Source: Vulcanimicrobiota bacterium (lineage in GTDB: Bacteria > Vulcanimicrobiota > Xenobia > Xenobiales > JADMJV01). Taken from it: a stretch of DNA of 64,000 nt. A program made the translations under genes and the position numbers. Shown here piece after piece: positions 2,887 through 29,066 of this stretch; the first letter of the stretch is position 1, and every line of letters starts with the position of its first letter. Location: contig JBFWNU010000004.1 of NCBI GenBank assembly GCA_050250895.1, positions 353,362 to 417,361 of the forward strand. The letters are read 5' to 3'. A model generated the notes under the pieces. That model was not told the origin of the DNA, did no database searches, and saw only the letters and a program-made list of their open reading frames with translations.

Positions 2887-2903
2887 TTGCCATAGAGGGC
2901 TAG

Positions 2904-6070: not shown

Positions 6071-6073
6071 GGC

Positions 6074-8685: not shown

Positions 8686-8770
8686 TGTTCATAAGCTTTA
8701 GCCGCTCCTGCCATCGAAAGCCGAGCAGAGCGAGAGGACCTGGTCGCGCCAGGAGGAAGCGGGAGCGACC

Positions 8771-13270: not shown

Positions 13271-13366
13271 CCCAGGGCTGCCTGTTCGTTAGCGGTCTCA
13301 TTCGCAGGCCTGGCTCGGTGGGGGTCGAAGGTCGCCCCCAGTCCACAGGTAGGCCGGCGATCCCAG

Positions 13367-14635
13367 GTGTTAGCAGTCACGCCTTTTGAAAAACTCTTCC
13401 TCTATTGCGACGAGGTCGCGGGCCCGACGGCCTTCGAGATCGGGCTCGAATTTACCGCTGACTTCGACCACCAGAAACTGACCGCGGCTCTCGACCGGGC
13501 CGTGACGCGCCACCCGATGCTCTCGGCCCGCATCGAAGAGCATCGCGGGCGGTTGGTCTGGGTGCCTCAGCCTGAATACCACGTTCCGCTCTTGCCGCCC
13601 GCTACCGGCAACCTCCTTTCGCCCTTGCACGGGGGCGGAGTGCGAGTTCGGCTTTCTGACCTGGGGCCGGGCACGCGTCTGCTCTTCGAGATTCATCACA
13701 GTTGCTGTGATGGCCGAGGGGCGTTCTTGTTTCTGGACGACTTTCTCCAGGACTACCACGAACTCTGCGGCGGCGCCGCCCGACGCCGCCCCAAAAGAGA
13801 TCTGTCGGTACTGGAAAGGAGGGGGCAGGTCGAGGTTTCGGAGACCAGCCTCGAACTTTCCCTGTGGCTGAGGCTGCGCCTAGCCTGGGACTTTCTGAGC
13901 ACTCGGCCCCAGGGCTTTGGCGATGTGAAGCGACCAGCTCGGTCGCACCGCCCGTTCTCTCAGCAGCTGTTTTCGCCAGCCCTGAGTTCGCTCATCGACA
14001 GCCGCCTGGCTGGCTCAGGGGCCAATCTTAACGACCTCGGTCTGGCCTTGCTGCTGCGGACGCTGGCCTCTACCTCGTCCTCCTCCCAGCCGCTGCGACT
14101 GCTGGTGCCGACCAGCCTGCGTCGCCTCTCTGACTTCAGGGCCGGGGCCAGCCACCGCACCAGCTTCGCCTTTCTCACCCGGGCCCCACACGATTGCCTC
14201 GGCGGCTTTGCCGACCTGCTCGAGTGGACCGTGGGCGAGACTCGCTTCATCAAAGCGGCCCGTCCCGACTACACCACCGTGTTGGGCGTGAATCTGCTCG
14301 AGCGATTGCGCCTGCTCCGTCGCTTCTTGAGCTGGCCCCAGGCCCGCAACACGGCCGTGCTCTCTTTCATGGACGATGTCACCCGACTCCTCTCGCTCAA
14401 GCGTTTTCCCAGTTCTGCCCAGGGTGTGGGCATTGGCGACCAGGTGTTGAGCGGAGTCTTCGGCGTGCCCCCCACCCGACCGGGCACGAGTCTCAGCTTT
14501 GGCCTGGGCCGCTTCCAGGGGCGCGTCAACGTCTGTCTGAAGGGGGAGCCCCAGGTGGTGTCCGAGCAACTCGAAGCCCAGCTCATGGCGGCCTATACCA
14601 AAGGTTGGCAGGCTTGGGCCGAGGGCGCTCTCTAG
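13367..14635 (+). CDS. Condensation-domain-like acyltransferase (HHxxxDG family; PapA5 / WS-DGAT-like)
   Basis: 422 aa; catalytic-type motif HHSCCDGRG about 110 aa from the N-terminus; convergent with the SDR gene and divergent from GT1; start codon appears to be GTG. Confidence 0.6.
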   Translation: MLAVTPFEKLFLYCDEVAGPTAFEIGLEFTADFDHQKLTAALDRAVTRHPMLSARIEEHRGRLVWVPQPEYHVPLLPPATGNLLSPLHGGGVRVRLSDLGPGTRLLFEIHHSCCDGRGAFLFLDDFLQDYHELCGGAARRRPKRDLSVLERRGQVEVSETSLELSLWLRLRLAWDFLSTRPQGFGDVKRPARSHRPFSQQLFSPALSSLIDSRLAGSGANLNDLGLALLLRTLASTSSSSQPLRLLVPTSLRRLSDFRAGASHRTSFAFLTRAPHDCLGGFADLLEWTVGETRFIKAARPDYTTVLGVNLLERLRLLRRFLSWPQARNTAVLSFMDDVTRLLSLKRFPSSAQGVGIGDQVLSGVFGVPPTRPGTSLSFGLGRFQGRVNVCLKGEPQVVSEQLEAQLMAAYTKGWQAWAEGAL

Positions 14636-15381
14636 AGCAGGCTGATACCGCCGTCCACCACCAGCGTCTGGCCCTGAATCAGGTCGGCCAGGGGGCTCGA
14701 CAGAAACAGGACACTGTCGGCCACATCGTCACAGGTCAGCTTCCGTCCGGCCGTGAGCAGGTGCTGGTCGACTGTTTCGAAGAGAGCCTCGGGCAAGGCT
14801 TTAGTCGATTGGGTTCGCACCAGCCCGGCCAGCACGACATTGAAATTGATCTGCGGAAACTCCAGAGCCAGGTGACGCGTCAGGCTCTCCAAAGCAGCTT
14901 TCGAAGCCCCGATCATGCCATAGTTCTCGATGGCTTTGCGAGCTCCGTGGCTCGACAGGCTCACCACCTTGGGTCGTCCCGAACCGGCTTGCATCCAGGG
15001 CAAGGCGGCCTGCACCAGACTCACCAGGGCCATGGCGTTGACGTTCATGGTGGTCTTGAACTGCTCCGGAGTGATCGAGCGCAGCGAGTGAAAACCGCCC
15101 CGGGCCACATTGCTCACCAGGATGTCCAGTCGGCCGAATCGTTGACCCACAAAGTCGAGCATGGCCTCAATGTCCTCGGCTTCGCCGATGTCGGCTTTGA
15201 CCACCACCGCGTCTCGGCCCAATTGCTGCACCTCTTCGGCCACCTGCTCGGCGGCCCTGGGCGAGGCCAGATAGTTGATGACCACGTCGGCCCCGGCCCG
15301 AGCCAGCTTGAGGGCGCAGGCCCTCCCGATGCCGCGCGAGGCTCCCGTGACCAGCGCCACCTTTCCGTCCAATTCGATCAT
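14632..15381 (-). CDS. Short-chain dehydrogenase/reductase (FabG-like)
   Basis: 249 aa; Rossmann motif VTGASRGIG near N-terminus; 4-bp overlap with PKS stop. Confidence 0.9.
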   Translation of the reverse strand: MIELDGKVALVTGASRGIGRACALKLARAGADVVINYLASPRAAEQVAEEVQQLGRDAVVVKADIGEAEDIEAMLDFVGQRFGRLDILVSNVARGGFHSLRSITPEQFKTTMNVNAMALVSLVQAALPWMQAGSGRPKVVSLSSHGARKAIENYGMIGASKAALESLTRHLALEFPQINFNVVLAGLVRTQSTKALPEALFETVDQHLLTAGRKLTCDDVADSVLFLSSPLADLIQGQTLVVDGGISLL

Positions 15382-18300
15382 GCGCCGATTCGGTTGGGGA
15401 CGCCGAGCCAGGCCAGCCGATAGTCATGGGCCCGCGCCATGAGCTGGCCATCGTCCCCCCAGAGATGAATTTCGAAGCGCTCCTCGCCTATCCATTGCAC
15501 CCTGACGACACAGCGCTCGCCCGGGCGGGTGAGGCGCCCCACCCACAACTCGCCGATAGTCGCTGGCACCGTGTGCCCTTCGCGCACGCTCTTCCAGGCC
15601 AAGATTCCCGCCGCATAGAGACATCCGTCCAGGATGGCCGAGGGCAGCCGCCACCCTACTGTAGAGCGGTGAGAGCCGGCCAGTTCCACCAAGGGTGGGG
15701 CCACCAGTTCGCCCCAGAGAGTCTCTCCCTCTATTTGATAGCGTCGCAGCGTTCGCAACGAGGGCCCGTGGTACATCTGACCCGAGTCGGAATAGGCGAC
15801 CGGCTCCCATTGGTCGGGAACCTCGGGGCAGGCCAGTGACTCGACCGGCATCTCGTTCACCAACTCTACCTCGAGCAAAGTTCGGCGCGCCTCTAACACC
15901 GTTCCGTCGCGGGCCAACTGGGCATAGAGCAGCCTCACCGTATTGTCGTCACGAGCCACTTCCACCTGGCGTGGACGCCCCTCGTGGAACTTCAGAAACC
16001 CTGCCGGTCGGACTCGCCTCAAGCCGATGGGGCCAGGACCTCGAGATTGCGCCTCGCAGGCCAACTCGAGGGCCACCACCAGGGGTAGTACCGGAACGTC
16101 TTCCACCCGATGGTCTCGCAAGAAGGCTTCCTGCTCGGGATCGAGCCATACCTGATTGGAGGTTCCCAGCAGGGGTCGGGCGGCCTGCTGCGTCTCGAAC
16201 AGCTCGGCGTGATAGAATCTGCGGTAATAGTGCTCATCGGTGATGAGCACCTCGGCTCTGGGGGCGCCGGCCTGCAACTCGGCGATGAGGTGAGCGACCC
16301 CCTCGGCCGCTGGCATGAAGTTCATGTTCACTAACTCGAGACCCAGCTGGCTCTCGCCTTTGACGGCCATTCCGACATCGCCCCAGGCGTGCCAATGAAA
16401 GGTCACCGCGCCGACCTCCGGCCGTTGCTGACGATAATAGGCCACTAGCTTGGCCATCATCTCGTTGGCGGCCGAATAGTCGGCGTGCCCGTTGGCCCCG
16501 AACCGACCACTGATCGAGCCGAAGGCGACAAAGAAGTCGAGCGGGTCTGCAGCCATCAGGCTCATCAAGTTGTGGGTTCCCAGGACCTTGGCTCCCAAGC
16601 ATTCCCCCACCTTTTGGTGGTCCTTCTGCTCGAACTTCGAATCGCGGGTGGCCCCGGCCCCATGCAGGACGCCGCGAATGGGTCCATCGGCCCGGATCGC
16701 CTGAAGAGTTTGGGCCAGCCGGTCCCGATCGCTCAAGTCGCAACTGTGATAGTGCGCTTCCAGGCCGGCTTCGTGGAGGGCCACCAGGGCCGCCTCGATC
16801 TCGAGGCCCTTCTCGACGGCTTCCCAGCTTTTGACCGGGTTGGCTGCTCCCTGAGAGCGAGCCGTATCCATCACTTCCAGCTTCAATCCACGGCGGTCCT
16901 GTAGCCAACGGGCTCGCCACTCGGGCGGATGCGAGGGACCGGGGGCCCGTCCGATGAGATGGAGCTTCAATCCGAAGCGGCCGGCCAGTTCGCGGGCGAC
17001 GTGGGCAGTGATGCCCCGGGCCCCGCCGGTGCAGACCCAGTTACCGCGCGGCAACACCGCCTGGCCGTCCCGGTCGTCCACTGGCTGGGGTTCGGCCGTC
17101 ACCAGGGCCCGTTGGCCGGCGATTTCACCGATCTCGAGCTCATAGTTGCGGTGGCAAAGCTCTCGTAGCACGCGCTGGCCAGCGTCTGAGGCACTGATAT
17201 CAGGGCCGCAGTCGATAACTTTCACGGTCAAATCGCGATGTCCGGCTACCCAATTCTCGATGCGCATCGACTTTAAAAGGCCGGCCAGAAATCCTCCGTC
17301 AGGACCCTCTATGGGCGTTCCAAAGCCGAAGCCGCCCCCGAGTCTGGTCACGGCCACCACGGTGGCCTCGTCCACCAGGCCGTCTCCCTTGACCCGCCGC
17401 AACCATTCCTGGCAGAGCCAGAACGGAGTCGTGATGCGGGCGGTGTAATGCTCTGGCCGCTCCAGTTCGCCCGGCACCCAGGCGGTGGTGATAAACAGGT
17501 GGGGTAGCGGCCCGAGCGCTTCGAGACCTCGCTTGAGTTCCGTCAAGGCCCGGTGGGTATCGAGGATATGGACCGGCCCCCTGAGGCGGCTCGCGAGTTC
17601 ACGACTCAAAGCGTTGTCTCCGATGATCAGCGAAGCTCCGCCAAGGCTGCGAGTGGGCGAGAGCGGGAGGGGACATTCGACCATCCTCATCAGGTAGCGC
17701 TGAGTCTGGTCGGGGGTCGAGCCGGGCAGGGTCCCGTGGCGCTCTTTGTAGCCGATCAGGTTGTAGAGATGGACTCCCGCTCCCTCGGCCAGGCCGCGAA
17801 GCTCTTCCAGGGTGGCCGGGTCGAGGCCGGCCTCGAGGTCTTTCCCAGGCCGCCTTTGCCAGGGAAAGACCTTGAGCGCATCGTGGCGCAGAGCCGCGCG
17901 GATGGCTTGGGATTGCGCCCGGCCACGTAGCCGAGCACTTTCATAGGCCTGCCCGCTGACGCGGGGCAGGAGCGGCGCCTCGGCCTCGGTCGGGGCCTCG
18001 GTCACCCCGATATGCTCGAGAATGTCTTTGAGGCTTCGGAGGTTGGCCAGCTCTTTGTCAGAGGTGTCTAGACCGAAGGCATCGCGCAGCTCGCCCAGCA
18101 ATTGGGTTCTTTTGATACTGTCGATGCCGAGGTCGGCCTCGAGTTCCCATTCCAGCTTGAGCGCGCTACGTGGATAGCCCGTCAGGTCGGCAACATGGTC
18201 GAGGAGAAAGGCTTGAGCGCGGGCGTCGATGGCCGTGGTGCGTGTCTTGCCGCTAAGGCTGTCTTCCCCCAGCACGCGCTCGAGGCGGGGCCGGGTCGCG

Positions 18301-21300
18301 TCGAAATGATCGATGCTTCCGAGCCCTCTCTGGGTGGTCGTCGAGCGCGCCTGGGGCAGCCGGTCGACGCATTCGAAGGCGGCTTCGAGGCGGGCCCACT
18401 GGAGGGCCCGCTGGCGACGCGGGTGGTCGACCGAAGTCACGATCACATTGCGCTCCTTCAAATTTTGGCGGGCCAGTTGAGTCAACACCTGTTTAGGGCC
18501 CACTTCGACGAGCAGGCCGACTCCGTCGTTCACGAGTTGATCCAGGAGCTGACCAAATCGGACCGGCTCGACCAGTTGCCGAACCAGATTCTGGCGGATG
18601 ACCTCGACCTGGGTAGCCGGCTGATTGGTCACGTTACTGTAAAACAGGATCGTGGGTGGACGCAGCTCGAGCCTGGCCAGCCGGGCTTCGAGGGCCGTCT
18701 GAGCCGATGCCACCAAAGGAGTGTGAAGGGCGCCCGGAACCTTGAGCCGGCGAGTGGGCATGCTGTCTTTTCTCAGCTCGCTCTCCAGGGCGGCCAGCTG
18801 ACTGTTAAGGCCGCCCACCACCGTCTGACCGGCGGCGTTATAATGGGTGAAATAAAGTCCTAGCTCGGCCACCAGAGGCTCGAGCCGTTGGGGAGGCGCG
18901 GCCACGGAAAGCAGACCTCCGTCGGGCGAGGCTGCTAGCAGAGCCTGAGCGCGGACCTGGGTCAGCTCCAGAGCGTCTTCGAAGGTCATGACCCCGGCCG
19001 CCACCAGGGCAGGAATCTCGCCAAAGCTGTGGCCACACACACAGTCGGGCCGATAGCCTTGCTCGTCGAGCACGGCGAAAGCGATCTGATCAGCGATCAA
19101 GACGGCCAACTGGGTGACCACCGGGTCGGCGTCAAGGCGCTCATCCGCTTGCCAGGCCAGGAGTCCAAAGCCAGGCAGGCCCATCTTCTCGAGGGCAGCG
19201 TCGGCCCGGCGCACCACGGCTGCCGCGGCCGCGGACCCGCTCACCAGGTCTCGCAGCATGCCTTGATACTGAGAGCCCTGACCCGAGAAAAGATAAGCGA
19301 TCCGCGGTCGAGCACGGCCGAGTTCGCAGTAGAAGATACCCTGCTCTTCGAGCAGGCGCCGGCCCTTGGCTTCGGCCAACTGGTCAGCTGCCAGAGCCAC
19401 ATTCTGGGCCAGGCGAGGCTGGTCGGGAGCCACGGCCACCAGGCGGACCGGGTCGGCCTGCGCCAGGCCCTGGCGACCCTCGCGAAGGTTGGTCGCCAGT
19501 TGGTTCGGGTCGTGGGCACTGTAGCGAGCCACCCGGGCGGTGACGGATGACCGGGGGCCGGCGCCCTCGAAGATGAGCTGGGCAGCCTGGCCGGTCTCGG
19601 CCAGGCCGGCCAGCACCACTCTCTCTTGCGGATGGCACAAGCTAGCTCTCAACAACGAGAGCATCCCCCCGGCCGCATGCAGAGCCCCGAATTGGGCGGC
19701 CAATGAGGGCAAGAGGGGCTTGCCGCAGACCCGCTCCAAAACCGGGGCCAACTCGGCCGAGGGGGCATCAGCCAGGGCAAGGCCCGGGTCAGACAAGGCA
19801 GGGCCGACCACCAATTCGAGGGCCGACTCGGGGGTGAGTCCGCTGGCGAGTTCTGCCGTGTGCAAAAGGCCATAGATTCGGTCCCCGTCCTGCTGGGCTC
19901 GGTCGAGGGTCTTGAGGATGACCACTCCGACCCCTTCGCCTGGCAACTGGGCGCTCAAACGACCTTTGAGGGCAAGACTCTCGAACCCCACCAGGTCCAT
20001 GGAGTGCTGGCCGGCCGCCACCACCACGGCTGAGCAATCGCCGCCCCGCAGCAGGTCACAACCCACCTTCAAGGCCGCCTCGGACGATGTCTCGCCCACA
20101 TCGAGAGCCAGGGCTCCACCGCGCCAATCGTGGGCTTTAGTCAATCGTGAAGCGAGAGAGCTACAGGTAAAGCCTCCCGTCTCGTCGAGCAGTGCCGAGT
20201 ATCGCTCGAAGAAAATCCGGTCGAACTGCTCGAGCAATCCGGGCTTCGAGAGGCCCAACTCAGCCAGCAGCCTGGCCACCTCACGGCGAATCTCGGCGTG
20301 GCGAAAGCCCACTTGCATCTGATTGCCGAAGTCCGAACAAAAACTCGCGCCCACCACCACGGCTGTCGAGTTTGCCTCGAGTGGGGAGCCCAGCTCTGCC
20401 AGGGCCTGATTGGTCGCATCCAACAGCATCAGCTGGACCGGATTGGCCCGCTTGACCTGCTTGGGAGGAATCTTGTGGCCGACGGCGTCGAACTCGAAGT
20501 TAGTGATGTAGCCACCGCGACGGGTGGGCGTATGCCAGGGCTGGAGCTGCTCGGCCAGGCCGGCGTCACTGGGCCAGCGACCGGCCGGCGGTTCGCCGAG
20601 TTGGGACTGGCCGCTGCCGAGCAACTCTTTCAACTCGCCCAGGTTGCGAGCGCCGGGGACGACGACGCCGCGCCCGACCACCGCCACCAGCGGCTCGTCG
20701 GCGGCCACCGGCTCGACCGGTCCGCCTGGCTCTTCGACCACCAGGTGAACGTTGAGACCGCCCACCCCAAAGGCGCTGACACCGGCTCGGCGAGTCTCTC
20801 CCTGACGGGGCGCAGGCCAATCGGACGGCTCTCGCTGGACCACGAAAGGTAGCCGCGACCAGTCCACTCCGGGGTTGAGCTGGTCGACGTTGATGGTGTG
20901 GGGAATGCCGCGGTGTCTCAAGGCCAGCACGACCTTCAACAAACTGGCCAGTCCGGCCGTCTCGAGCGTATGCCCCAAATTGGACTTGACACTGCCGATG
21001 GGTATCTGGCGTCCTTTCAGATGAGGCCCGAAAAAGGTCGACAAAGACTCGAGTTCGGTGGCGTCACCCAGCTGAGTGCTGGTGGCGTGGGCTTCGATGT
21101 ACTGGACGCTGGCCGCGTCGACTCCGGCGTAGCAACGTTGCAGCGCCTCGAGCTGTCCCTCGGCACGGGGGGCCCACAGACTGCGACCGCGACCATCCGA
21201 AGACAGACCGATCGAGCGGATCACCGCTTGCATCGAATCCCCGTCGCGGCGGGCCGCATCGGCCCGCTTGAGGACCATTGCCACCACTCCTTCGGAGCTG

Positions 21301-22088
21301 ATCAGGCCGTCGGCTTCGGCATCGAACGGGCGCGAGCCGGACGCGCTGCACGATTGGGCGTGGGAAAAGAGAATGAGGCTCTCCGTCTTGTTGTAGGAGG
21401 ACCCTCCGACGATGGCCAGGTCGATTTCGCCCCGGGTCAGAGCCAGGGCGGCCAGGGAGAGAGCCACCAACGACGAGGCACAGGCGGCGTCTACCACCAG
21501 CTGAGGGCCGGCCAACCCCAGTTGCCGGACCAGCAGGCCCGCGATCCATTGGGCCTCGAGACACGGTTTGCCTTCCCCGTCGCGGCGAGGCCGTCCGCGG
21601 CGTAGCTGGCCGGTCAGGGCTTGCATGGCGGCCTGACGCGTCTGGGTCGGCAAAGCGCGAAAATCGGGCAAGCACTCGAGCAACTCCGCCACCTGAGCGG
21701 CCAGGGTGGCTACCACCAGTTCTCCCCCCCGGGGCGTTCCTCCGGAGTGACCGGCATAGACACCGACTCGCTGGCCTTGCAGCCCGTCAGCATAGCCCGC
21801 CTCGGCCAGCGCTTCCAGAGCCACATCGCAAAAGATGCGGTGGCTCAAGTCATAGGAATCATCTCCCGAGCGGGCCTGGCAAGACTTGAGGCAGCCGCCG
21901 ATGCTGGAGTAAGTCTTTCCCACCTGACCGCGGGTCGAATCAAAGTAAAGTTCTCGGTCCAGTCGCTCGGGGGGCAACTCGCGAACCGCATCATGGCCGT
22001 TCCAGAGCAACTCCCAGAATTCGGCCGGGTTGTCCGAATCGGGCAGGCGGCAGCCGCACCCCAATATCGCGATAGGAGCGATCTTCAT
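15378..22088 (-). CDS. Type I polyketide synthase, single module: KS / KS-like / AT / ACP / KR / DH
   Basis: 2236 aa; KS DAACASS + HATST + GHT; AT GQGSQ + GHSFGE; ACP LGIDSI; KR TGGARGIT + YSAAN; C-terminal HRVEDVPVLP hot-dog motif; 4-bp overlaps with flanking genes. Confidence 0.9.
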   Translation of the reverse strand: MKIAPIAILGCGCRLPDSDNPAEFWELLWNGHDAVRELPPERLDRELYFDSTRGQVGKTYSSIGGCLKSCQARSGDDSYDLSHRIFCDVALEALAEAGYADGLQGQRVGVYAGHSGGTPRGGELVVATLAAQVAELLECLPDFRALPTQTRQAAMQALTGQLRRGRPRRDGEGKPCLEAQWIAGLLVRQLGLAGPQLVVDAACASSLVALSLAALALTRGEIDLAIVGGSSYNKTESLILFSHAQSCSASGSRPFDAEADGLISSEGVVAMVLKRADAARRDGDSMQAVIRSIGLSSDGRGRSLWAPRAEGQLEALQRCYAGVDAASVQYIEAHATSTQLGDATELESLSTFFGPHLKGRQIPIGSVKSNLGHTLETAGLASLLKVVLALRHRGIPHTINVDQLNPGVDWSRLPFVVQREPSDWPAPRQGETRRAGVSAFGVGGLNVHLVVEEPGGPVEPVAADEPLVAVVGRGVVVPGARNLGELKELLGSGQSQLGEPPAGRWPSDAGLAEQLQPWHTPTRRGGYITNFEFDAVGHKIPPKQVKRANPVQLMLLDATNQALAELGSPLEANSTAVVVGASFCSDFGNQMQVGFRHAEIRREVARLLAELGLSKPGLLEQFDRIFFERYSALLDETGGFTCSSLASRLTKAHDWRGGALALDVGETSSEAALKVGCDLLRGGDCSAVVVAAGQHSMDLVGFESLALKGRLSAQLPGEGVGVVILKTLDRAQQDGDRIYGLLHTAELASGLTPESALELVVGPALSDPGLALADAPSAELAPVLERVCGKPLLPSLAAQFGALHAAGGMLSLLRASLCHPQERVVLAGLAETGQAAQLIFEGAGPRSSVTARVARYSAHDPNQLATNLREGRQGLAQADPVRLVAVAPDQPRLAQNVALAADQLAEAKGRRLLEEQGIFYCELGRARPRIAYLFSGQGSQYQGMLRDLVSGSAAAAAVVRRADAALEKMGLPGFGLLAWQADERLDADPVVTQLAVLIADQIAFAVLDEQGYRPDCVCGHSFGEIPALVAAGVMTFEDALELTQVRAQALLAASPDGGLLSVAAPPQRLEPLVAELGLYFTHYNAAGQTVVGGLNSQLAALESELRKDSMPTRRLKVPGALHTPLVASAQTALEARLARLELRPPTILFYSNVTNQPATQVEVIRQNLVRQLVEPVRFGQLLDQLVNDGVGLLVEVGPKQVLTQLARQNLKERNVIVTSVDHPRRQRALQWARLEAAFECVDRLPQARSTTTQRGLGSIDHFDATRPRLERVLGEDSLSGKTRTTAIDARAQAFLLDHVADLTGYPRSALKLEWELEADLGIDSIKRTQLLGELRDAFGLDTSDKELANLRSLKDILEHIGVTEAPTEAEAPLLPRVSGQAYESARLRGRAQSQAIRAALRHDALKVFPWQRRPGKDLEAGLDPATLEELRGLAEGAGVHLYNLIGYKERHGTLPGSTPDQTQRYLMRMVECPLPLSPTRSLGGASLIIGDNALSRELASRLRGPVHILDTHRALTELKRGLEALGPLPHLFITTAWVPGELERPEHYTARITTPFWLCQEWLRRVKGDGLVDEATVVAVTRLGGGFGFGTPIEGPDGGFLAGLLKSMRIENWVAGHRDLTVKVIDCGPDISASDAGQRVLRELCHRNYELEIGEIAGQRALVTAEPQPVDDRDGQAVLPRGNWVCTGGARGITAHVARELAGRFGLKLHLIGRAPGPSHPPEWRARWLQDRRGLKLEVMDTARSQGAANPVKSWEAVEKGLEIEAALVALHEAGLEAHYHSCDLSDRDRLAQTLQAIRADGPIRGVLHGAGATRDSKFEQKDHQKVGECLGAKVLGTHNLMSLMAADPLDFFVAFGSISGRFGANGHADYSAANEMMAKLVAYYRQQRPEVGAVTFHWHAWGDVGMAVKGESQLGLELVNMNFMPAAEGVAHLIAELQAGAPRAEVLITDEHYYRRFYHAELFETQQAARPLLGTSNQVWLDPEQEAFLRDHRVEDVPVLPLVVALELACEAQSRGPGPIGLRRVRPAGFLKFHEGRPRQVEVARDDNTVRLLYAQLARDGTVLEARRTLLEVELVNEMPVESLACPEVPDQWEPVAYSDSGQMYHGPSLRTLRRYQIEGETLWGELVAPPLVELAGSHRSTVGWRLPSAILDGCLYAAGILAWKSVREGHTVPATIGELWVGRLTRPGERCVVRVQWIGEERFEIHLWGDDGQLMARAHDYRLAWLGVPNRIGA
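15381..16226 (-). other. PKS dehydratase-like hot-dog domain, approx. residues 1955-2236
   Basis: HRVEDVPVLP (HxxxDxxxxP variant of the DH HxxxGxxxxP motif) at ~1993-2002. Confidence 0.55.
16344..17651 (-). other. PKS ketoreductase (KR) domain, approx. residues 1480-1915
   Basis: NADPH-binding VCTGGARGIT (~1685-1694) and catalytic YSAAN (~1871). Confidence 0.75.
17994..18236 (-). other. PKS acyl carrier protein (ACP) domain, approx. residues 1285-1365
   Basis: Phosphopantetheine attachment motif ADLGIDSI (Ser ~1324); only one such motif found. Confidence 0.75.
18399..19301 (-). other. PKS acyltransferase (AT) domain, approx. residues 930-1230
   Basis: FSGQGSQ at residues ~934-940 and active-site GHSFGE at ~1019-1024. 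Confidence 0.8.
19854..20693 (-). other. PKS second KS-like segment lacking catalytic Cys (chain-length-factor-like), approx. residues 466-745
   Basis: KS-like N-terminal half (VAVVGRGVVVPG, NPVQLMLLDA, LDVGETSS in place of Cys motif, GEGVGVVILK) that then loses KS similarity. Confidence 0.5.
20733..22082 (-). other. PKS ketosynthase (KS) domain, approx. residues 3-452
   Basis: Active-site Cys in DAACASS (residue ~203), His in EAHATST and NLGHT. Confidence 0.8.
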
Positions 22089-23458
22089 GCGGCCCCTAGT
22101 AGATCGACGACGTGCATCAGCATTTTTAGCGCTTCATCCAGGCGCTCGGAGTCCCCGACGAGCACCAGCTCACCTGCATAGAGAGCTTGCTCTGGGGTCA
22201 GCTGGCGGCCTGCCAGGTGAGCCAGCGTAGGCAGGCTGCAAAACGCTTCAGGCGCGCATTCGACTCTTGTCAGGGGAGTGCGTCCCGTTTCGGCAAAACC
22301 CCATTGTCCCCCTTCGGGTCCGGGCACGGTCAAAAAGAGCCGGGGTTCTGAGTTTGAGGCCAGCGGAATTCGCGAAAGTCGCCGGGCCAGATCCCACTCC
22401 GGCGCAGCCTGAAAGCGATGTTCCAGGGCGAAACCGACCAGCCGTTTAAGCGCCTCGCCATCCAGACGAGGGCAAGGCACGCCACTGTGCTCGAGGGTCA
22501 GCTGGCAGTCAAAGGTCGGATGGTTGCTGAGATAGGGTCGATAGGTCGACACCGCGGCCGGCCCGTCGAGCGATTGAACCGATGGCGGTTGGTCATCCTC
22601 GCTTCGACAGGCGCGCACAGCGTCATACAGAGCTTGGAAGCTGGTGGGATGAGGATTGGTCAGATGATAATATTGCTGGGCCGAGCGCTCCTGGCCCAGC
22701 AACGCGATGACCACCTGCGAGACCCAGTCCACCGGAACCAGGTTGATCCCGTCCTCGGGGTCTTCGACCCCTACCGTTTCTAGTAGTGAACGACTGCTCG
22801 AGGCCGAGTTCAGCCAGGTCAGCAAGAGGAGCGGGTACGCTCCCTGAAAATTCGGGGTGTAGCCGGTGGAAGACTCGCCTACGATGATGGAAGGACGATA
22901 GATGGTGAAACGCCGCAGAAACTCGGCCTGGGCAACCAGCGACTCGGCCAGGGCCTTGCTGCGCTCGTAGTCATTGTTGAAGACCTGGTGAAGGGGCACG
23001 GGTCGGGGCTCAAGGTTGGGAACGGTGGCCCCGCAGACGTAGGCGGTCGAAATCAAGTGAAACTCGTCGAGGTCACACCCGCGACTCAGTTCGAGCAGGC
23101 GGGCGGTTGCGTCGACATTGGTCAGATAAGGTTCTCCACTGCCATCGGCTCGAAACTTCACGGTGGCTGCCGAATGCAACACCCGGCAGCAGTGGTTCTT
23201 GAGCCACTCACGAGCCTGCTCGTCAAGACCGAGATCGGGTTGGCGCAGGTCACCCTCGATGAGCTGGGGACGAGGGAGCTGGCGGGCCAGCCCTCTTTCC
23301 AGTCGCTGGCAACAAACCTCGATCCTTTCGGCTGCAGACGCTCCGTTCGTCGGGCGAGCCAAAACCGCGAGGTTCAAGCCTTGCAATAGACCGTCACGCA
23401 TCAAAAACTGGCCCAGCAGGCCGGTTGCTCCGGTGAGTAGCGTAAAGGTTCTATCCAT
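22085..23458 (-). CDS. Stand-alone thioester reductase-domain protein (NAD(P)-dependent fatty acyl reductase-like)
   Basis: 457 aa; LLTGATGLLGQFL Rossmann motif at N-terminus, YERSK catalytic-type motif; no ACP segment; stop overlaps PKS start by 4 bp. Confidence 0.7.
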   Translation of the reverse strand: MDRTFTLLTGATGLLGQFLMRDGLLQGLNLAVLARPTNGASAAERIEVCCQRLERGLARQLPRPQLIEGDLRQPDLGLDEQAREWLKNHCCRVLHSAATVKFRADGSGEPYLTNVDATARLLELSRGCDLDEFHLISTAYVCGATVPNLEPRPVPLHQVFNNDYERSKALAESLVAQAEFLRRFTIYRPSIIVGESSTGYTPNFQGAYPLLLLTWLNSASSSRSLLETVGVEDPEDGINLVPVDWVSQVVIALLGQERSAQQYYHLTNPHPTSFQALYDAVRACRSEDDQPPSVQSLDGPAAVSTYRPYLSNHPTFDCQLTLEHSGVPCPRLDGEALKRLVGFALEHRFQAAPEWDLARRLSRIPLASNSEPRLFLTVPGPEGGQWGFAETGRTPLTRVECAPEAFCSLPTLAHLAGRQLTPEQALYAGELVLVGDSERLDEALKMLMHVVDLLGAA

Positions 23459-23532
23459 TGATGCTTACCAGTTCTTGGCGTCGCGCCCGACTAGCCCGGT
23501 GTCGACCGGCATCGCCCAGCGCCGGGATGACG

Positions 23533-23590
23533 CAAGTCTAAGACAGTATACGAGATCCTCCGAGATTTCAAGTCTTTGGCCAAGTCTTCA
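23533..23590. promoter_or_regulatory. Three direct copies of CAAGTCT (plus two CGAGAT) in the region upstream of the thioester reductase-PKS-SDR operon
   Basis: Copies at ~23533, ~23569 and ~23581 in the 130-bp gap between the hydroxylase gene end and the reductase start codon (23458, minus strand). Confidence 0.3.
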
Positions 23591-24676
23591 AGCCTGACCA
23601 CGGGTCTCGATGGTGGGTCTTTCGATAGCGGTCTGGGCTTCTTTCCAGCGAACTCCACCGGGCAAGAGGTTGTAGGCTCGCTGGAGTCGAGCGATGGCGC
23701 GGGTTTCGGCCGTCGACAAACAAGGGTGCCACAGGTTGAGAAAGAGGACCACCCTGAGCTGATCGCTGTGATTCCAGACCTCGTGCACGAAAGCGTCGTC
23801 AAACACCAGCACTTCGCCCTCCTCCCAGGTGGCCACCTGACCGCCGACTCGCAGGCCACAGTGGTCGGGCACCAACAGACCCAGATGGAAGCGAAGAATA
23901 CCGTTGATGGTGCCTACATGAGGAATGATTCGGCTCTGGGGGTTGAGGGCCGAGAACAGGATGAACTCTTTCTCGAGCCGGGGCAGACTGGCCAGCAACC
24001 CGCTCGTCAGGGGACAGCGTCGACAGTTGTCTTCCACCGCCTCACCCTGAATGTAGAAGTGGAAGGTGTTCCAGCCCGGCATCAGGTTGCCGTACTCCGT
24101 GCGATAGTTGCCAAAACCGCGCGGCTCCGCCAAGAGATCGTTCAACTCGTGGCGAATGGTCTGGCAATGCTCGCGCAGGATGGAGGTCCAGGGAAAATCT
24201 GAAGCCTGGTAGAGCCGGCGGGCGGGAATGCCAGGCAAAAAGAAGTGGGGGCGTTGATGGGGGTCGGTAAACTCGGTGCAAGGCCAATCGTCTTGATGGA
24301 AAAAGACGTCGAGAAAGCCGGACCGGTGGAACAGCGCTTCGGCCACGTTGCGATATCCGAGCCTGGCACAACCCCGTTGGAACGTGGCGTGGGCGTCCAG
24401 TCCGAACACCGCTCGGGCGAAGGCGTCGGTCTGGGCTGGTCGGAACTGGTTGGCCAGGTCACGCCAGAACCGGGCCGTGGGGTTGCTGACGAAGGCCCCT
24501 CCCAGGGCCCAGAGCCGATGCAGCCCCCACACCGACAGCCCGAGCGCGGTGGGGCCGCTCGCCGCCACCCTGGCCCAGACCCGGCGCAGCCAGGCCGGCA
24601 GACGCACCGGAGAACCATCCAAACCCAGCTGGTCGTAGCTCACCTGCATCAATTGTTCGAAAGTAGGTTGGGCCAC
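23588..24676 (-). CDS. Asp/Asn beta-hydroxylase-family Fe(II)/2-oxoglutarate oxygenase (LpxO-like)
   Basis: 362 aa; C-terminal cupin segment IPHVGTINGILRFHLGL ... DDAFVHEVWNHSD ... NLWHP resembling the aspartyl/asparaginyl beta-hydroxylase family. Confidence 0.65.
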   Translation of the reverse strand: MAQPTFEQLMQVSYDQLGLDGSPVRLPAWLRRVWARVAASGPTALGLSVWGLHRLWALGGAFVSNPTARFWRDLANQFRPAQTDAFARAVFGLDAHATFQRGCARLGYRNVAEALFHRSGFLDVFFHQDDWPCTEFTDPHQRPHFFLPGIPARRLYQASDFPWTSILREHCQTIRHELNDLLAEPRGFGNYRTEYGNLMPGWNTFHFYIQGEAVEDNCRRCPLTSGLLASLPRLEKEFILFSALNPQSRIIPHVGTINGILRFHLGLLVPDHCGLRVGGQVATWEEGEVLVFDDAFVHEVWNHSDQLRVVLFLNLWHPCLSTAETRAIARLQRAYNLLPGGVRWKEAQTAIERPTIETRGQA

Positions 24677-24707: not shown

Positions 24708-24926
24708 CTAGCAGGTAATGTCGAGGTTGCGGCCGAGGTTGCGCTGGCGACGGGCGCGTTCCATCACCTCATCGGGCAGCTTGACGCTACGTTGGCACGA
24801 GGGGCAGCGCAGCTTCTCGGCGCCAAGCACCTCGTCGACGCTCCACTCGGGCAGCAAGGCCCGGCAATGGGGGCAGGCCATACGCTTCTCGGGGTTGATT
24901 CTTCCTACTTCAGCCATGTCGCCCAT
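24708..24926 (-). CDS. Small zinc-ribbon protein (FmdB-like CxxC...CxxC)
   Basis: 72 aa; CPHC ... CPSC pair separated by ~20 residues. Confidence 0.4.
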   Translation of the reverse strand: MGDMAEVGRINPEKRMACPHCRALLPEWSVDEVLGAEKLRCPSCQRSVKLPDEVMERARRQRNLGRNLDITC

Positions 24927-24979: not shown

Positions 24980-25852
24980 ATGCTATTTCTGGGAGCTGAC
25001 TGCAGCCGCCACAGCATCCATTGTGTGCTGGTCGACGCCGACGGCAGGGTCTGGCAGCGCACTCGAGCCCGTCGTCAGGGTCCCCTCGAGGCCGATCTGG
25101 CTTCGGCCCTGGCCCCCTGCTTGCAAGCAGCCACCGGACCGTTCGAAGCGGCCATCGCGGCCGAGGGTTGCGGGCCGTTGGCGCTGCCCGAGGGCGCCGC
25201 CAGCCTGTGGCAGTGCCGGCCCGAAGAAGCCCTGTTGTGTGGGGCGCTGGCCTGCCGGCCGGGGGTAGTCATCACCAGTGCCACCACGGCCCGCGCGCTG
25301 GGCATCGACCGCGGGCTAAAACCACGCCAACTCGAGCAAGATGGCGGCAGCGCCGGCTGGCTGGCCGAGCAGGGTCTAGCCTCGCGGGCCCAATCCCCGC
25401 GACTGGCCCAGGCAGTCCAACGTGTCTTTGGCTCGAAAGAGCCCGAAGGGGTGGCCCGACTGGCCTTTTGCCGCGAGGTGCTTGAACTGGCGACCTTTCC
25501 GGGTCCCGACCCCATCTGCCGGGCGCTGGTGCTCAAAGCCGCCCGCAGCCTGTGCGACCTGACTCGCTATCTGGTGCCACGGATCCAGACCCTCGAACGA
25601 GCCAGTTGGGCCGGGGTGGGCATGCGGGAACCGCTGCTCGAGGCCTATTTTCAAGAACTTCAGCAACATCTCCCCGGCCTGCCCTGGCGCCAGCCACGCT
25701 TTCCCGCCGAGGTGGGCTGCGCTCTGTTAGCGCAGGCTGGCTATCACGAACGCCAGCGCCGCGACGATCAGGCAGCCACCCCGCGCAGGGTCGGCCCCGA
25801 TGTCTGGCGCCACGTCTTTCGCAACCGCAAGCCCTTTCCTGAGTATGAATGA
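24980..25852 (+). CDS. Hypothetical protein
   Basis: 290-aa ORF in the coding strand series; N-terminus LFLGADCSRHSIHCVLVDADG weakly resembles sugar-kinase/ASKHA phosphate-1 loops, not assignable. Confidence 0.4.
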   Translation: MLFLGADCSRHSIHCVLVDADGRVWQRTRARRQGPLEADLASALAPCLQAATGPFEAAIAAEGCGPLALPEGAASLWQCRPEEALLCGALACRPGVVITSATTARALGIDRGLKPRQLEQDGGSAGWLAEQGLASRAQSPRLAQAVQRVFGSKEPEGVARLAFCREVLELATFPGPDPICRALVLKAARSLCDLTRYLVPRIQTLERASWAGVGMREPLLEAYFQELQQHLPGLPWRQPRFPAEVGCALLAQAGYHERQRRDDQAATPRRVGPDVWRHVFRNRKPFPEYE

Positions 25853-26513
25853 GCGACGGCTAAGGAAGCCCTGGTATGGCATCATTGGCGAGCTGTTTTG
25901 GGGCTGCTCGCTCACCATGTTCGAAATGGTCAATCTGGGCGGGTTTCCCTGGTGGTGGAAGCTCCACTGGCTGATGTTTCGCCACTATCGCGGCTTTGAT
26001 CCCGACGGGCGGGTGCGGCAATTGTACGGCAACAACCCGGGGTCGCTGGCTTATGGTGAAACCCCCGTCTCGGCCACTCGGCGCATGCTGGCCCTGGCCG
26101 AACTGCCGGTAGGTTCGACCCTGGTCGACCTCGGTTGCGGACGCGGCCTGGTAGCCATGGCGGCCGCCTGTTCAGGCTATCGAGCGGTGGGGGTCGAGGT
26201 GATGCCCGAGTATCTCGCAGCCGCTCCGCTCATCACGGCCGCCCTCGACATCGAGGTGGAGTGGCTGATCGGCGATTTTCTCGAACTCGAACTGCCTCGG
26301 GGCGATTGTTATTTCGCTGCCTCGACAGCGTTTCCCCAGCCTGTGCGCGAGCAACTCGGGCAACGCCTGGCCGAGGTCGGGGCCCCCCTGCTGATCACGC
26401 TCGACTGGATCGTCGAGCATCCTGACTATGAACCCATCCGGTCGCTGCGACTGCCGACCACCTGGGGCACCTCGCTGTTTACCGTCCACCGACTTCGGGG
26501 AACAGAGCCTTGA
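25845..26513 (+). CDS. Class I SAM-dependent methyltransferase
   Basis: Frame 25800..26513 trimmed to ATG 25845 (ATGAATGA overlap with upstream stop); motif I LVDLGCGRG, acidic post-I GVEV, motif II IGDF. Confidence 0.7.
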   Translation: MNERRLRKPWYGIIGELFWGCSLTMFEMVNLGGFPWWWKLHWLMFRHYRGFDPDGRVRQLYGNNPGSLAYGETPVSATRRMLALAELPVGSTLVDLGCGRGLVAMAAACSGYRAVGVEVMPEYLAAAPLITAALDIEVEWLIGDFLELELPRGDCYFAASTAFPQPVREQLGQRLAEVGAPLLITLDWIVEHPDYEPIRSLRLPTTWGTSLFTVHRLRGTEP

Positions 26514-27973
26514 TGGATTTCTTACCTGTGCTCTCTGAATCGGCCCAGGCCTTCTGGCGTACCAGTTACGGCCTGCTGCTGTTTTTGACCCTGTTGCTGA
26601 CCTGGCCGGCTTCGAAGTGGTTCTTCCGCAGCGAGAAGTGGGGTGGCTATGCCGAATCGAGCCCCACCGTCGATCTCGTTCAGAACCCCTTCATCCATCC
26701 CCTGGTGATGGGACTGTGGTTCACCTGCGCCACCATGCTGATGCTGGGACGCGACACCGTCCTGTTCGCTCTCATCAACCTGGGCCTGTGCTGGTATTTT
26801 TTCATCTACATGCGTTGGCGCGGCATCTTGCGCGGCATGGGGGCTCCCGGCTTCATGTGTTACTGGATGGGAGCGGCGGTGCTGTTTCTCGAGGCTGGTC
26901 GCCATCTCGACCCCAGCGGCCGCTTGCTGGCGGCGGGTCTTTTCGCCTTTCAGGTCGACTACGCCATCATCCAGCTGTGTGCGGGCAGCTACAAGCTGCG
27001 AGCCGGCTATCCCCGCAACGAGGGCATGCAGTTAGGAATGGCCAATCCCTGGTGGGGCTACTACTGGCGCTTCTTCAAGCAGCTCGATTACACCCATCCT
27101 CTCTACGTCTTTCTCAACCAATCGGCCTATCTGACCCAAATCGGGGCGGCCTTCTTGATGCTCTATCCTCCGACGCGGTTGCTGGGAGCAGGCATCATCA
27201 TGGCCAGCTTCGTGTTCATTCTCACCCAGATCCGCCTGGGTGTGCTGTGCGAGATGGTCATTATCGGCGGCCTGTTGTTCATCCCAGCCGGCGGCGTGGT
27301 CGACGGTTGGGTGACCTGGCTGATGGGGCACCCCCAGGTGCCCCAGAGTCTGCCCCAGATGCCGCCCTGGCTGGCTACAGGCCTGGCCGCTTTCTTCTGC
27401 GTTTATATCGCCTTGCTACCCTTTGCCAAGTTCGGCCAGTGGTATAACTATCTGGCCCACCAGCGTTTGCCCGAACCTTTTCAGACCTTCCTCGAGAAGT
27501 GGACCAACGCCTTCGGCATCATCATCTGGCGCGTCTTCTCGGTGGATGTGGTCAACTTCTTCGTCCGCGTCTATCAGGTCGACGGCGATGGCCGCGAGCA
27601 AGAATACACCTGTTTCGGAAAGATCGACTGGCCGACGCGCTGGCGCTATATCCATGTGGGCGAGTTCGTCTGCTTTGCCTCGATTTTCACGACGCTAAAA
27701 TATCATCCCAGCAACTCGGAGATGTTTCGCGCCAAGCTGGTTCGCTACGCCCGCACCATTCCTTGTCCCTCCGGAGGCAAGCTTCGCTTTGCCTATTTCT
27801 CGCTGGCCCGCGGCCAGGGAGAGATCGAACATCGCCACAGTGCCGACTTCCTCGTCGAGCCCCACTCGGGCCACCTCGAGGTGCGCCAGTATGACGACCT
27901 TGACCTGAGCAAGGGCCATGCCGTTTCTCCCGTGCGAGAGGGTGCCCGACCTGGAACCTACGCGCCGGCCTGA
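26513..27973 (+). CDS. Polytopic integral membrane protein, unknown function
   Basis: ~486 aa; ATG at 26513 overlaps upstream stop (TGATG); N-terminal two-thirds highly hydrophobic with Trp/Tyr-rich helices, C-terminal soluble region. Confidence 0.6.
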   Translation: MDFLPVLSESAQAFWRTSYGLLLFLTLLLTWPASKWFFRSEKWGGYAESSPTVDLVQNPFIHPLVMGLWFTCATMLMLGRDTVLFALINLGLCWYFFIYMRWRGILRGMGAPGFMCYWMGAAVLFLEAGRHLDPSGRLLAAGLFAFQVDYAIIQLCAGSYKLRAGYPRNEGMQLGMANPWWGYYWRFFKQLDYTHPLYVFLNQSAYLTQIGAAFLMLYPPTRLLGAGIIMASFVFILTQIRLGVLCEMVIIGGLLFIPAGGVVDGWVTWLMGHPQVPQSLPQMPPWLATGLAAFFCVYIALLPFAKFGQWYNYLAHQRLPEPFQTFLEKWTNAFGIIIWRVFSVDVVNFFVRVYQVDGDGREQEYTCFGKIDWPTRWRYIHVGEFVCFASIFTTLKYHPSNSEMFRAKLVRYARTIPCPSGGKLRFAYFSLARGQGEIEHRHSADFLVEPHSGHLEVRQYDDLDLSKGHAVSPVREGARPGTYAPA

Positions 27974-29066
27974 ATTCGGGCTGGCCACTTCGGCCTTTCA
28001 AGTCGAAGGCGGTTGGTCCGAGCGAGGTGCTTCCATTTGGGATGAGGCCTGTCCTCAGGCAGCCACAGCCTGCGGCAGCTGGCCCGACTTCGAGGGTGAA
28101 CTGGCCATGCTGGGCTGGCTGGGCGCCGAAGCCTTTCGCTTCTCTCTGGCCTGGCCTCGGCTTTGCCCGGACGGACGCCGATTTGAACTTGCTCGGCTGG
28201 CCCCTTACGAGCGCTTGGTGGAGCGATTACTGGAAGCCTCGATTCGGCCCGTTCCCACCCTCTATCATTGGGACCTGCCGCTGGCCCTCGAGGGCGGCTG
28301 GAAAAACCCCGACACGGCCCATCGCTTTGCAGACTACGTCGAGGCGGTGACAGGGCGGCTCTCGGACCGAATCGGACAATGGTTCACCCTCAACGAGCCG
28401 TGGTGCAGCTGTCATCTGGGCTATGAGACCGGCGAGCACGCCCCCTTCGAAACTTGCCCGCCCCGGGTGGTAGCCCAGGTTCGTGACCACCTGCTCGGGG
28501 CTCATCGCCTGGCGGTCCAGGCCATTCACGCCGCCGGAAGCCGCTGCGGCGCCGCCATGCTGCCGATTCCGTTGGTGGCCGCCGGACCCGAACACGAAGA
28601 GGCGGCCGAACTGGCCTGGCGCGAGGTCAACGATGTCTGGTTCGAGCCGCTCTATCCAGCCGACTTTCTGGGTCTCAACCTCTACTATCCCACTCTGGTC
28701 GAAGCCGTCGACGGCGGCTGGCGAGAGGTTCCCTGGTCGGGACCTCGCACCAGCCTGGGCTGGCCCGTGGACCCGGGCTTCTACGGCCCCACCATCGAGA
28801 AGGTCCTGGGCCGCTATGGTCCTCAAACTCTGGTGATCAGCGAAACCGGTTGGGCCACCTCTGATGACAGCCAAAGACAGCAGTGGCTCGAGGCCTCGCG
28901 GCTTGACCAGCTGCCGGTCGAAACGGTCTTCTTCTGGAGCCTGATGGACAATCTAGAGTGGCAGCACGGGTTCGAGCCTCAATTCGGGTTCTTCAGCCGC
29001 CAGGGCCAACCCAAACCCAGCGCCGCCTGGCTCAGGCGTAATTGGGGCCAAGCGAGGGGCGACTAG
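27918..29066 (+). CDS. Glycoside hydrolase family 1 (beta-glucosidase-like)
   Basis: 382 aa; N-terminal FGLATSAFQVEG, acid/base TLNEP, nucleophile ISETGW; start overlaps upstream gene by ~56 nt so true start may be the GTG at ~27942. Confidence 0.85.
   Translation: MPFLPCERVPDLEPTRRPEFGLATSAFQVEGGWSERGASIWDEACPQAATACGSWPDFEGELAMLGWLGAEAFRFSLAWPRLCPDGRRFELARLAPYERLVERLLEASIRPVPTLYHWDLPLALEGGWKNPDTAHRFADYVEAVTGRLSDRIGQWFTLNEPWCSCHLGYETGEHAPFETCPPRVVAQVRDHLLGAHRLAVQAIHAAGSRCGAAMLPIPLVAAGPEHEEAAELAWREVNDVWFEPLYPADFLGLNLYYPTLVEAVDGGWREVPWSGPRTSLGWPVDPGFYGPTIEKVLGRYGPQTLVISETGWATSDDSQRQQWLEASRLDQLPVETVFFWSLMDNLEWQHGFEPQFGFFSRQGQPKPSAAWLRRNWGQARGD

Follow-up and report, generated by a model that had tools for sequence, protein, structure and literature searches.

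We analysed a 64,000-nucleotide stretch of contig JBFWNU010000004.1 from a Vulcanimicrobiota bacterium (hereafter the window), in which a hydroxylase gene and a reductase gene precede a gene for a PfaA-like iterative type I polyketide synthase (PKS). On balance, and at somewhat better than even chances, we favour a reading in which these two enzymes provide the tailoring and release steps of a secondary-lipid pathway that makes an envelope glycolipid of the heterocyst-glycolipid kind. The gene identities, the intact catalytic motifs, the folds and the conserved gene linkage are observations; from them we infer the substrate, the choice between aldehyde and alcohol, the site of hydroxylation and the final product. 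The hydroxylase gene lies upstream of the reductase gene on the same strand, separated by a spacer of 129 nt in which a promoter and terminator scan and RNA folding found nothing above chance (z 0.35). Because full-length homologs occur in many metagenomes (35-47% identity for the reductase, 37-91% for the hydroxylase), both are regarded as real genes, and an identical copy of the reductase is present in an NCBI metagenome-assembled genome (MAG) labelled "Vulcanimicrobiota bacterium". Vulcanimicrobiota (Eremiobacterota) is the phylum of the class Candidatus Xenobia, to which the host probably belongs.

The reductase groups with terminal thioester reductases

By sequence, catalytic residues and predicted fold, the reductase groups with the terminal thioester reductases (TRs) of PKSs and nonribosomal peptide synthetases (NRPSs). 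A sequence-only reading of this DNA had pointed to the motifs TGATGLLG and YERSK, the lack of a carrier domain and a stop codon overlapping the PKS start, all of which were confirmed. The motifs occupy residues 9-16 and 164-168, Pfam returned no PP-binding (carrier) match for the reductase, and its TGA at 22087..22085 overlaps the PKS ATG at 22088..22086, giving an ATGA at 22088..22085 (reading GCATGAAG). In an alignment of 26 homologs, the Rossmann motif TGxTGxxG and residues S137-T138, Y164 and K168, which supply the Thr/Tyr/Lys catalytic triad, are invariant, and the catalytic motifs align with those of the reductase (R) domain of MxaA. Among solved structures, those nearest in sequence are the terminal R domain of MxaA, the Streptomyces coelicolor PKS thioreductase, the Mycobacterium Nrp R domain and carboxylic acid reductase (CAR).

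The AlphaFold model of the reductase (predicted local distance difference test, pLDDT, 88) was compared with the PDB using Foldseek. Ranks 1-7 were all PKS/NRPS R domains (E 1e-20 to 5e-16), the best matches being MxaA, the S. coelicolor PKS TR and an archaeal T-R (thiolation-reductase) didomain, with 4u7w (E 1e-20) at the top followed by 8v1x and 6vtj. They were followed by a plant fatty acyl reductase (FAR; rice DPW) and CAR R domains, and sugar epimerases appeared at about 1e-13. That the open reading frame (ORF) might fit sugar epimerase/dehydratase families better, an objection anticipated in the sequence-only reading, was looked at and rejected: PF07993 (NAD_binding_4) scored 147.8 bits against a cut-off of 20.1, compared with 54 bits for PF01370 and 21 bits for PF16363 (GDP-mannose dehydratase), and R domains gave the best fold matches.

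The last ~105 residues of the reductase (about 352-457) constitute a separate domain, overlooked before, which is probably an SCP2-fold lipid-binding domain. SCP2 (PF02036) is matched by 8 of the 26 reductase family members and Alkyl_sulf_C by 4, and a profile of the C-terminal region matched the SCP2-like C-terminal domains of alkylsulfatase-type proteins (7tl5, E 4e-10; 2yhe, 5e-4) and, weakly, SCP2 proteins. The tail of the window reductase is by itself too diverged to match SCP2; its C-terminal 158 aa alone gave no Pfam match, even at E 10. Since the sequence and modelled fold are those of R domains and the tail profile matches are of the SCP2 type, the enzyme is best described as a predicted carrier-less, thioester-reductase-type protein fused to a lipid-binding fold.

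Coupling of the reductase to the polyketide synthase

According to Pfam, the PKS consists of a ketosynthase (KS), a second KS-like region, an acyltransferase (AT), one acyl carrier protein (ACP), a ketoreductase (KR) and a dehydratase (DH), and ends in the DH; the second KS-like stretch is a Pfam match with weak internal similarity. The Pfam scan of the PKS found neither a thioesterase (TE) nor an R domain, and chain release would therefore occur in trans. An R-domain-like reductase coupled to a PKS devoid of a release domain thus lends support to reductive release in trans, as the sequence-only reading had proposed.

Loci encoding related reductases were collected by an alignment-based profile search of genome contigs, the single window sequence having returned none when used as query. 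In species-representative genomes the family occupies at least 479 places, of which the best 80 loci (numbered with the prefix L, as are further loci reached through hydroxylase homologs) were examined. Their hosts are mostly Planctomycetota, together with the barely cultured Eremiobacterota/Vulcanimicrobiota, and the closest species-representative locus (L001) belongs to a Xenobia MAG. At least 3 kb of downstream sequence was available for 59 of the 80; a PKS lies within 10 kb of the reductase homolog in 22 of these 59 and immediately downstream in 12. The reductase-then-PKS order with a 4-nt overlap is found in the window and in L001, L003, L082, L083, L090 and L091, although the reductases of these loci are only 31-42% identical. 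The retention of this overlap across distant lineages argues for a stoichiometric partnership between the two proteins.

The hydroxylase belongs to the AspH/LpxO/OlsC family

Sequence and structural modelling identify the gene upstream of the reductase as encoding a putative Fe(II)/2-oxoglutarate (2OG) oxygenase of the AspH/LpxO/OlsC family. The assignment to the Asp/Asn beta-hydroxylases had been proposed earlier, with PF05118 as the hidden Markov model (HMM) to be consulted, and this model scored 154.3 bits against a cut-off of 22.6 (E 3e-45). The protein has a helical N-terminal domain of ~120-135 aa and an oxygenase domain at residues ~165-320; its N-terminal 157 aa alone gave no Pfam match. 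Human AspH aligns with it at 98 bits, an alignment that places the Fe ligands at H253 (in PHVG) and H298 (in FVHEVW) and the 2OG-binding residues at S242, R262/H264 and R308, and these Fe and 2OG ligands are invariant or nearly so among 29 homologs. In the AlphaFold2 model (pLDDT 93.8), the oxygenase domain superposes on human AspH (5apa) with a root-mean-square deviation (rmsd) of 2.3 Å over 190 columns.

The earlier description of the enzyme as "LpxO-like" is correct at the level of the PF05118 family and incorrect if taken to mean an ortholog. LpxO (NF033391) scored 79.3 bits against a cut-off of 500, and OlsC (NF052565), the best curated model, scored 120.4 bits against a cut-off of 450 over residues 155-323 only; LpxO or OlsC orthology was rejected because both scores fall far under their cut-offs. 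A membrane anchor on the window enzyme was likewise considered and rejected by hydropathy, whereas a sister subfamily (37-40% identity) has one at the N terminus.

Close hydroxylase homologs adjoin reductase-PKS pairs

When genomic contexts were examined from the hydroxylase side, each of the five homologs looked up at 58% identity or more was found to adjoin a reductase-PKS pair, in three arrangements. The gene order of the window recurs in L081 (91% identity) and L090 (60%); in L083 the hydroxylase gene is divergent from a run of genes for a reductase, a PKS, an enoyl reductase (ER) and a family 1 glycosyltransferase (GT1); and in L082 and L091 it is the last gene of an HHxxxD-ACP-KS-hydroxylase operon that is divergent from the reductase-PKS pair. 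That the linkage outlasts these rearrangements speaks well for a pathway shared by the hydroxylase, the reductase and the PKS. An accidental linkage, the conclusion first drawn from the 80 reductase loci, was overturned by these contexts.

More distant homologs (45-51% identity) adjoin membrane fatty-acid desaturase-family, Acyl_transf_3, esterase or PAP2 genes and often lie within polysaccharide clusters with Wzz, Wza, family 4 glycosyltransferase (GT4) and sulfotransferase genes, and one homolog of 37% identity lies among glycosyltransferases. Given these neighbourhoods, a lipid or glycolipid substrate is much likelier than a protein. No candidate gene for a conserved protein substrate, EGF-like or other, is conserved near the hydroxylase homologs, and the closest homologs always adjoin a reductase-PKS pair, so the rival that the sequence-only reading had named, a protein hydroxylase with a conserved protein substrate, gained no backing from these contexts. 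Its suggestion that a lipid is hydroxylated is supported by the gene linkage of the homologs.

Three of these loci (L082, L083 and L091), which hold the closest non-identical hydroxylase homologs, also encode a discrete ACP and a FabF-like KS beside the hydroxylase and the HHxxxD protein (L082 8554..9995, L083 12220..13767, L091 8505..9946). L083 additionally carries genes for a CMAS-type methyltransferase, a fatty-acid desaturase and an Acyl_transf_3 protein. No discrete ACP/KS pair of this kind was present among the ORFs examined in the first 36 kb of the window. In L089 (9328..13606) an ACP gene and a KS-AT PKS gene flank a hydroxylase homolog; that contig is full of apparent frameshifts, and the called hydroxylase C terminus runs into a KS N-terminal motif (IAIVGMACRLPGA).

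A Rieske/Ring_hydroxyl_A oxygenase gene accompanies the reductase-PKS pair in L001 (7807..8913), L003 (6614..7720), L006 (19758..20852) and L090 (6797..7750). The four oxygenases are 55-85% identical to one another, and L090 contains both the Rieske oxygenase and the AspH-type hydroxylase. A Rieske oxygenase was searched for in the window and is absent. It may represent an alternative or additional lipid oxygenase.

Acyltransferase, glycosyltransferase and polysaccharide genes in the window

The pair of enzymes recognised by the sequence-only reading stands, but the genes for the acyltransferase and the glycosyltransferases, on which the outcome of the pathway depends, had been overlooked (Table 1). 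The start of the ER gene overlaps the PKS stop codon, and the FabL model NF005975 scores its product at 252 bits, below the cut-off of 328. An ER follows the PKS in L001, L003, L006, L051, L083 and L090.

Table 1. Features of the hydroxylase-reductase-PKS region, in positions of the window
Feature	Position	Strand	Basis
Hydroxylase, PF05118 family, 362 aa	23588..24676	-	PF05118 E 3e-45, 154.3 bits
Reductase, whole ORF, 457 aa	22085..23458	-	PF07993 match, no carrier domain
Thioester-reductase-type extended short-chain dehydrogenase/reductase (SDR) domain of the reductase (residues 1 to ~290)	22589..23458	-	PF07993 E 4e-43
Putative SCP2-fold tail of the reductase (residues ~352-457) and stop codon	22085..22405	-	Family profile matches
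PfaA-like iterative type I PKS, 2236 aa	15378..22088	-	Pfam domains; TIGR02813 (PfaA) 584 bits, below cut-off
FabL-like SDR enoyl-ACP reductase (ER), 249 aa	14632..15381	-	PF13561 E 1e-57
Stand-alone condensation-domain-family acyltransferase, 422 aa	13367..14635	+	HHxxxD motif, profile matches
GT1 glycosyltransferase (macrolide/rifamycin-GT-like), 411 aa	12035..13270	-	PF06722, PF04101, PF00201, PF03033
GT4 glycosyltransferase	10893..12050	-	PF00534 + PF13439
Zinc-ribbon ORF, 69 aa, directly upstream of the hydroxylase	24711..24917	-	Two CxxC pairs

The acyltransferase gene is convergent with the ER gene, and its product carries the motif HHSCCDGRG, whose HHxxxD residues H110, H111 and D115 are invariant in six homologs. 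These homologs were taken from the collected loci, a direct homolog search having recovered only the query itself. The single sequence matched nothing in Pfam or NCBIfam, and the profile matched NRPS condensation (C) domains (E 1e-9) and PapA5 (1q9j, 1.6e-4; also 8s6l). Homologs of the acyltransferase lie near the reductase in 12 of the 59 loci and also in L082, L083 and L091, and they include some planctomycete loci without a PKS.

The Rgt and MGT models score the GT1 weakly, and GT1 homologs are present in the clusters of L006, L083 and L090. The GT4 ORF as listed (587 aa) is over-extended: PF00534 and PF13439 span only residues 261-572, and the Arg/Ser-rich first ~200 residues overlap the GT1 gene, which has a TTG start. 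An ORF at 12729..13346, in another frame of the GT1 region, looks spurious.

After GT1 the gene order is GT4, Wzx flippase, sulfotransferase, Wzz, GH10, second GT4, Wzy and Wza. A Wzx/Wzy-type polysaccharide cluster (370..12656) thus directly adjoins the PKS cluster, and comprises a Wza/SLBB exporter, a Wzy/O-antigen-ligase-like protein, two GT4s, GH10, Wzz/GNVR, a sulfotransferase and a flippase. The PKS cluster of L090 likewise lies beside polysaccharide genes, and hydroxylase homologs are found inside such clusters in L086, L092 and L093.

On the other side, the zinc-ribbon ORF, for which Pfam gives weak Zn-ribbon matches only, is followed by a divergent set at 24980..29066 (plus strand) encoding a 290-aa protein, a methyltransferase, a 487-aa protein and a GH1-like protein. 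Conservation of this ORF and of the divergent set is limited to the 91%-identical contig L081, and the zinc-ribbon ORF is a tentative member of the cluster.

Proposed pathway and alternative readings

In the pathway we favour, the PKS and a trans-acting FabL-like ER would build a long, largely saturated acyl chain iteratively on the one ACP. The translationally coupled reductase would then reduce the acyl-S-ACP with NAD(P)H to an aldehyde, or to a primary alcohol after a second hydride transfer, while its SCP2-fold tail might shield the hydrophobic product or pass it on. The AspH/OlsC-family oxygenase would add one hydroxyl group to the lipid, either at C-2 of the chain while it is still ACP-bound and unreduced, yielding a 1,2-diol, or at C-2 of an ester-linked chain. 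Finally, the PapA5-like acyltransferase and the GT1 and GT4 enzymes would acylate and glycosylate the alcohol to give an envelope glycolipid. AspH hydroxylates the carbon beside a side-chain carbonyl, and the lipid-acting family members characterised so far, LpxO, OlsC and OlsD, all act at C-2; by analogy, attack next to the (thio)ester carbonyl is likely.

Several observations weigh against this pathway. The TIGR01746 thioester reductase model, which together with an HMM search had been suggested as a check on the reductase, gives E 1.8e-32 and 113 bits, below its cut-off of 213.35, so that PF07993 alone exceeds its cut-off, and the FAR-type model PRK07201 scores the reductase about as well as TIGR01746. 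More than half of the 59 reductase homologs lack a PKS within 10 kb, and hence the family is not strictly dedicated to PKSs. The HHxxxD acyltransferase is a second possible release enzyme in the cluster. As regards the hydroxylase, tblastn found no homolog in the best 80 species-representative reductase loci, so hydroxylation is an optional tailoring step, and the closest Xenobia/Eremiobacterota loci have a Rieske oxygenase and a sugar epimerase in its place. Its sole solved relative is the protein hydroxylase AspH, and, unlike LpxO, it has no predicted transmembrane helix (maximal 19-residue Kyte-Doolittle mean of the N-terminal region, 1.15). To these may be added the complete genome of Pirellulaceae bacterium SH449 (L056, 9887..17705), where a reductase homolog without a nearby PKS is followed by genes for an MMPL-family transporter, a 469-aa protein and two GT2/GT21 (ceramide-glucosyltransferase-like) enzymes; this setting points to a further role of the reductase family in glycolipids that does not involve a PKS.

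Among the alternatives, the one that survives best, although we consider it unlikely, is that the reductase is a FAR making fatty alcohols from the primary fatty-acid pool, and that the HHxxxD acyltransferase releases the PKS chain by esterifying it onto such an alcohol, following PapA5 or wax-ester logic. PF07993 covers FARs too, the comparable score of PRK07201 and the presence of rice DPW among the top fold matches agree with it, and reductase homologs occur with an HHxxxD protein and without a PKS in L005, L011, L016, L020, L023 and L029. An SCP2 tail would also suit the handling of free lipids, and the HHxxxD protein is PapA5-like. The best sequence and fold matches of the reductase are, however, carrier-protein-dependent R domains, and the 4-nt coupling to the PKS is conserved across distant lineages, both of which speak for release of an ACP-bound chain.

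It appears quite improbable that the hydroxylase is instead an AspH-like beta-hydroxylase of a protein or peptide, be it a cluster enzyme or a secreted protein, with co-regulation alone accounting for its position beside the PKS. Apart from the AspH match and the missing membrane helix, this idea can draw on a loose alignment (~340 columns) of the whole model, including the helical N-terminal domain, with AspH structures that combine tetratricopeptide repeats and an oxygenase domain; but the whole-chain superposition on AspH is poor (rmsd ~13 Å), and the best curated bacterial model is that of the lipid hydroxylase OlsC. The linkage to reductase-PKS pairs kept in three arrangements, the desaturase and acyltransferase genes beside distant homologs and the lack of a conserved candidate substrate gene nearby also argue against it. 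Equally doubtful is a role of the hydroxylase in modifying a lipid-linked polysaccharide produced by the adjacent Wzx/Wzy genes, at its glycan or at another site outside the acyl moiety, an idea prompted by homologs of 37-48% identity in Wzz/Wza/Bac_transf/GT4/sulfotransferase clusters without a PKS (L086, L092, L093) and by the polysaccharide genes bordering the clusters of the window and L090, since the immediate neighbour in L086 and L092 is a membrane fatty-acid desaturase-family gene, which points to a lipid, and we know of no PF05118 member that hydroxylates a sugar.

Returning to the glycolipid pathway, we also entertain, as an unlikely extension, an envelope lipid class that has not been described: a PKS-derived very-long-chain alcohol or 1,2-diol that would be 2-hydroxylated on the ACP by the soluble oxygenase, released by the TR-SCP2 fusion, which would both free the chain and hand it on, acylated by the PapA5-like enzyme and glycosylated, and that would serve as lipid anchor or primer of the sulfated polysaccharide of the neighbouring Wzx/Wzy genes.

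Significance

The combination of a PfaA-like PKS, a stand-alone or terminal TR and a glycosyltransferase is already known. What appears to be uncharacterised is their combination with the carrier-less TR with an SCP2 fold, the optional AspH-family oxygenase, the one-protein PKS and the FabL-like ER in Vulcanimicrobiota/Planctomycetota, a compact type of cluster in which a Rieske oxygenase may be the optional oxygenase instead. Literature searches turned up no description of this cluster type in Planctomycetes/Eremiobacterota or of TR-SCP2 fusions, and no lipid assigned to the reductase family. The Shulse and Allen types I and J of planctomycetes were considered and set aside, as their architecture differs from that of this cluster. 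One earlier remark concerns a cupin hydroxylase beside pfa-like genes, which was left uncharacterised (PMC13291983), and only a handful of products are known for PUFA-synthase-like (polyunsaturated fatty acid) "secondary lipid" pathways according to the same 2026 survey (PMC13291983).

Should the proposed pathway prove correct, unusual long-chain envelope lipids, which are used as chemotaxonomic or environmental markers, would gain a genetic origin that can be tested. The LpxO/OlsC hydroxylases would be joined by a PKS-associated relative, and fatty alcohols or diols could be made with a reductive-release module that is small and portable. If the pathway is wrong, the two genes are still an ordinary, correctly read tailoring pair within a lipid PKS cluster. 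Planctomycetes contain orphan residue-bound C26-C32 (omega-1)-hydroxy fatty acids (PMC3327967), which make the reductase-PKS clusters worth testing; that related clusters hold the missing genes for these lipids is speculation on our part.

Comparison with known systems

The closest solved structures and sequences to the reductase, the R domains of MxaA (myxalamid) and of the S. coelicolor PKS TR (8v1x), share its catalytic motifs. MxaA carries out a four-electron reduction to the alcohol. Both R domains close an assembly line and are fused to its carrier protein, whereas the window reductase is a protein in its own right and carries a predicted SCP2-fold domain in addition.

The window hydroxylase has the Pfam family (PF05118) and Fe/2OG chemistry in common with LpxO, OlsC and OlsD, which hydroxylate C-2 of ester- or amide-linked, lipid-bound acyl chains (PMC12971839). 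It differs from LpxO and OlsC in its extra helical N-terminal domain and in having no predicted membrane helix; its genomic partner is a PKS, while theirs are lipid A or ornithine-lipid genes.

Like PapA5 of the mycobacterial phthiocerol dimycocerosate (PDIM) system, the acyltransferase is a stand-alone HHxxxD condensation-family enzyme encoded beside a lipid PKS. By this analogy its donor could be a PKS-bound acyl chain and its acceptor a long-chain alcohol or diol, the similarity to PapA5 being remote and at the profile level only (E 1.6e-4).

Zmn14, the stand-alone TR of the PUFA-like zeamine synthase of Serratia plymuthica, reduces acyl thioesters and aldehydes in vitro (PMC5811116). It resembles the window reductase as a free-standing TR without a carrier domain, the chain that it releases being bound to the ACP of a PfaA-like protein, and the zeamine pathway too has a stand-alone condensation enzyme (PMC5811116). 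The likeness is one of description, and the zeamine chain undergoes amination and is coupled to a peptide; the portion of that account consulted describes no SCP2 tail, AspH-type hydroxylase or glycosyltransferases in the Zmn14 system (PMC5811116).

A parallel in pathway logic is the heterocyst glycolipid (hgl) pathway of the Nostocales, which likewise joins a PKS (HglE/D/C/A), a thioester reductase (HglB) and a glycosyltransferase (HglT) (PMC11804610). There, a PUFA-synthase-like iterative PKS makes a very long chain, the TR yields a fatty alcohol and the glycosyltransferase adds a sugar, and the envelope glycolipid is deposited together with a polysaccharide layer (PMC11804610). The hgl island has been defined by orthology to at least 7 of 19 Anabaena island genes, including an HgdBC/DevBCA-type exporter (PMC11804610), and no ATP-binding cassette (ABC) or DevBCA-type exporter was found among the ORFs covered by general Pfam scans of the window. 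The PKS, ER, TR and glycosyltransferase functions of an hgl-type set all lie within 12035..23458, encoded by protein families that differ from those of Anabaena: the PKS is a single polypeptide, the ER is an SDR of the FabL-like kind, the GT1 is a macrolide-GT-like enzyme, and the reductase has no fused ACP and carries the predicted SCP2-fold tail. To this set the window adds an AspH-family oxygenase and a PapA5-like acyltransferase, in a Vulcanimicrobiota host with relatives of the cluster in Planctomycetota.

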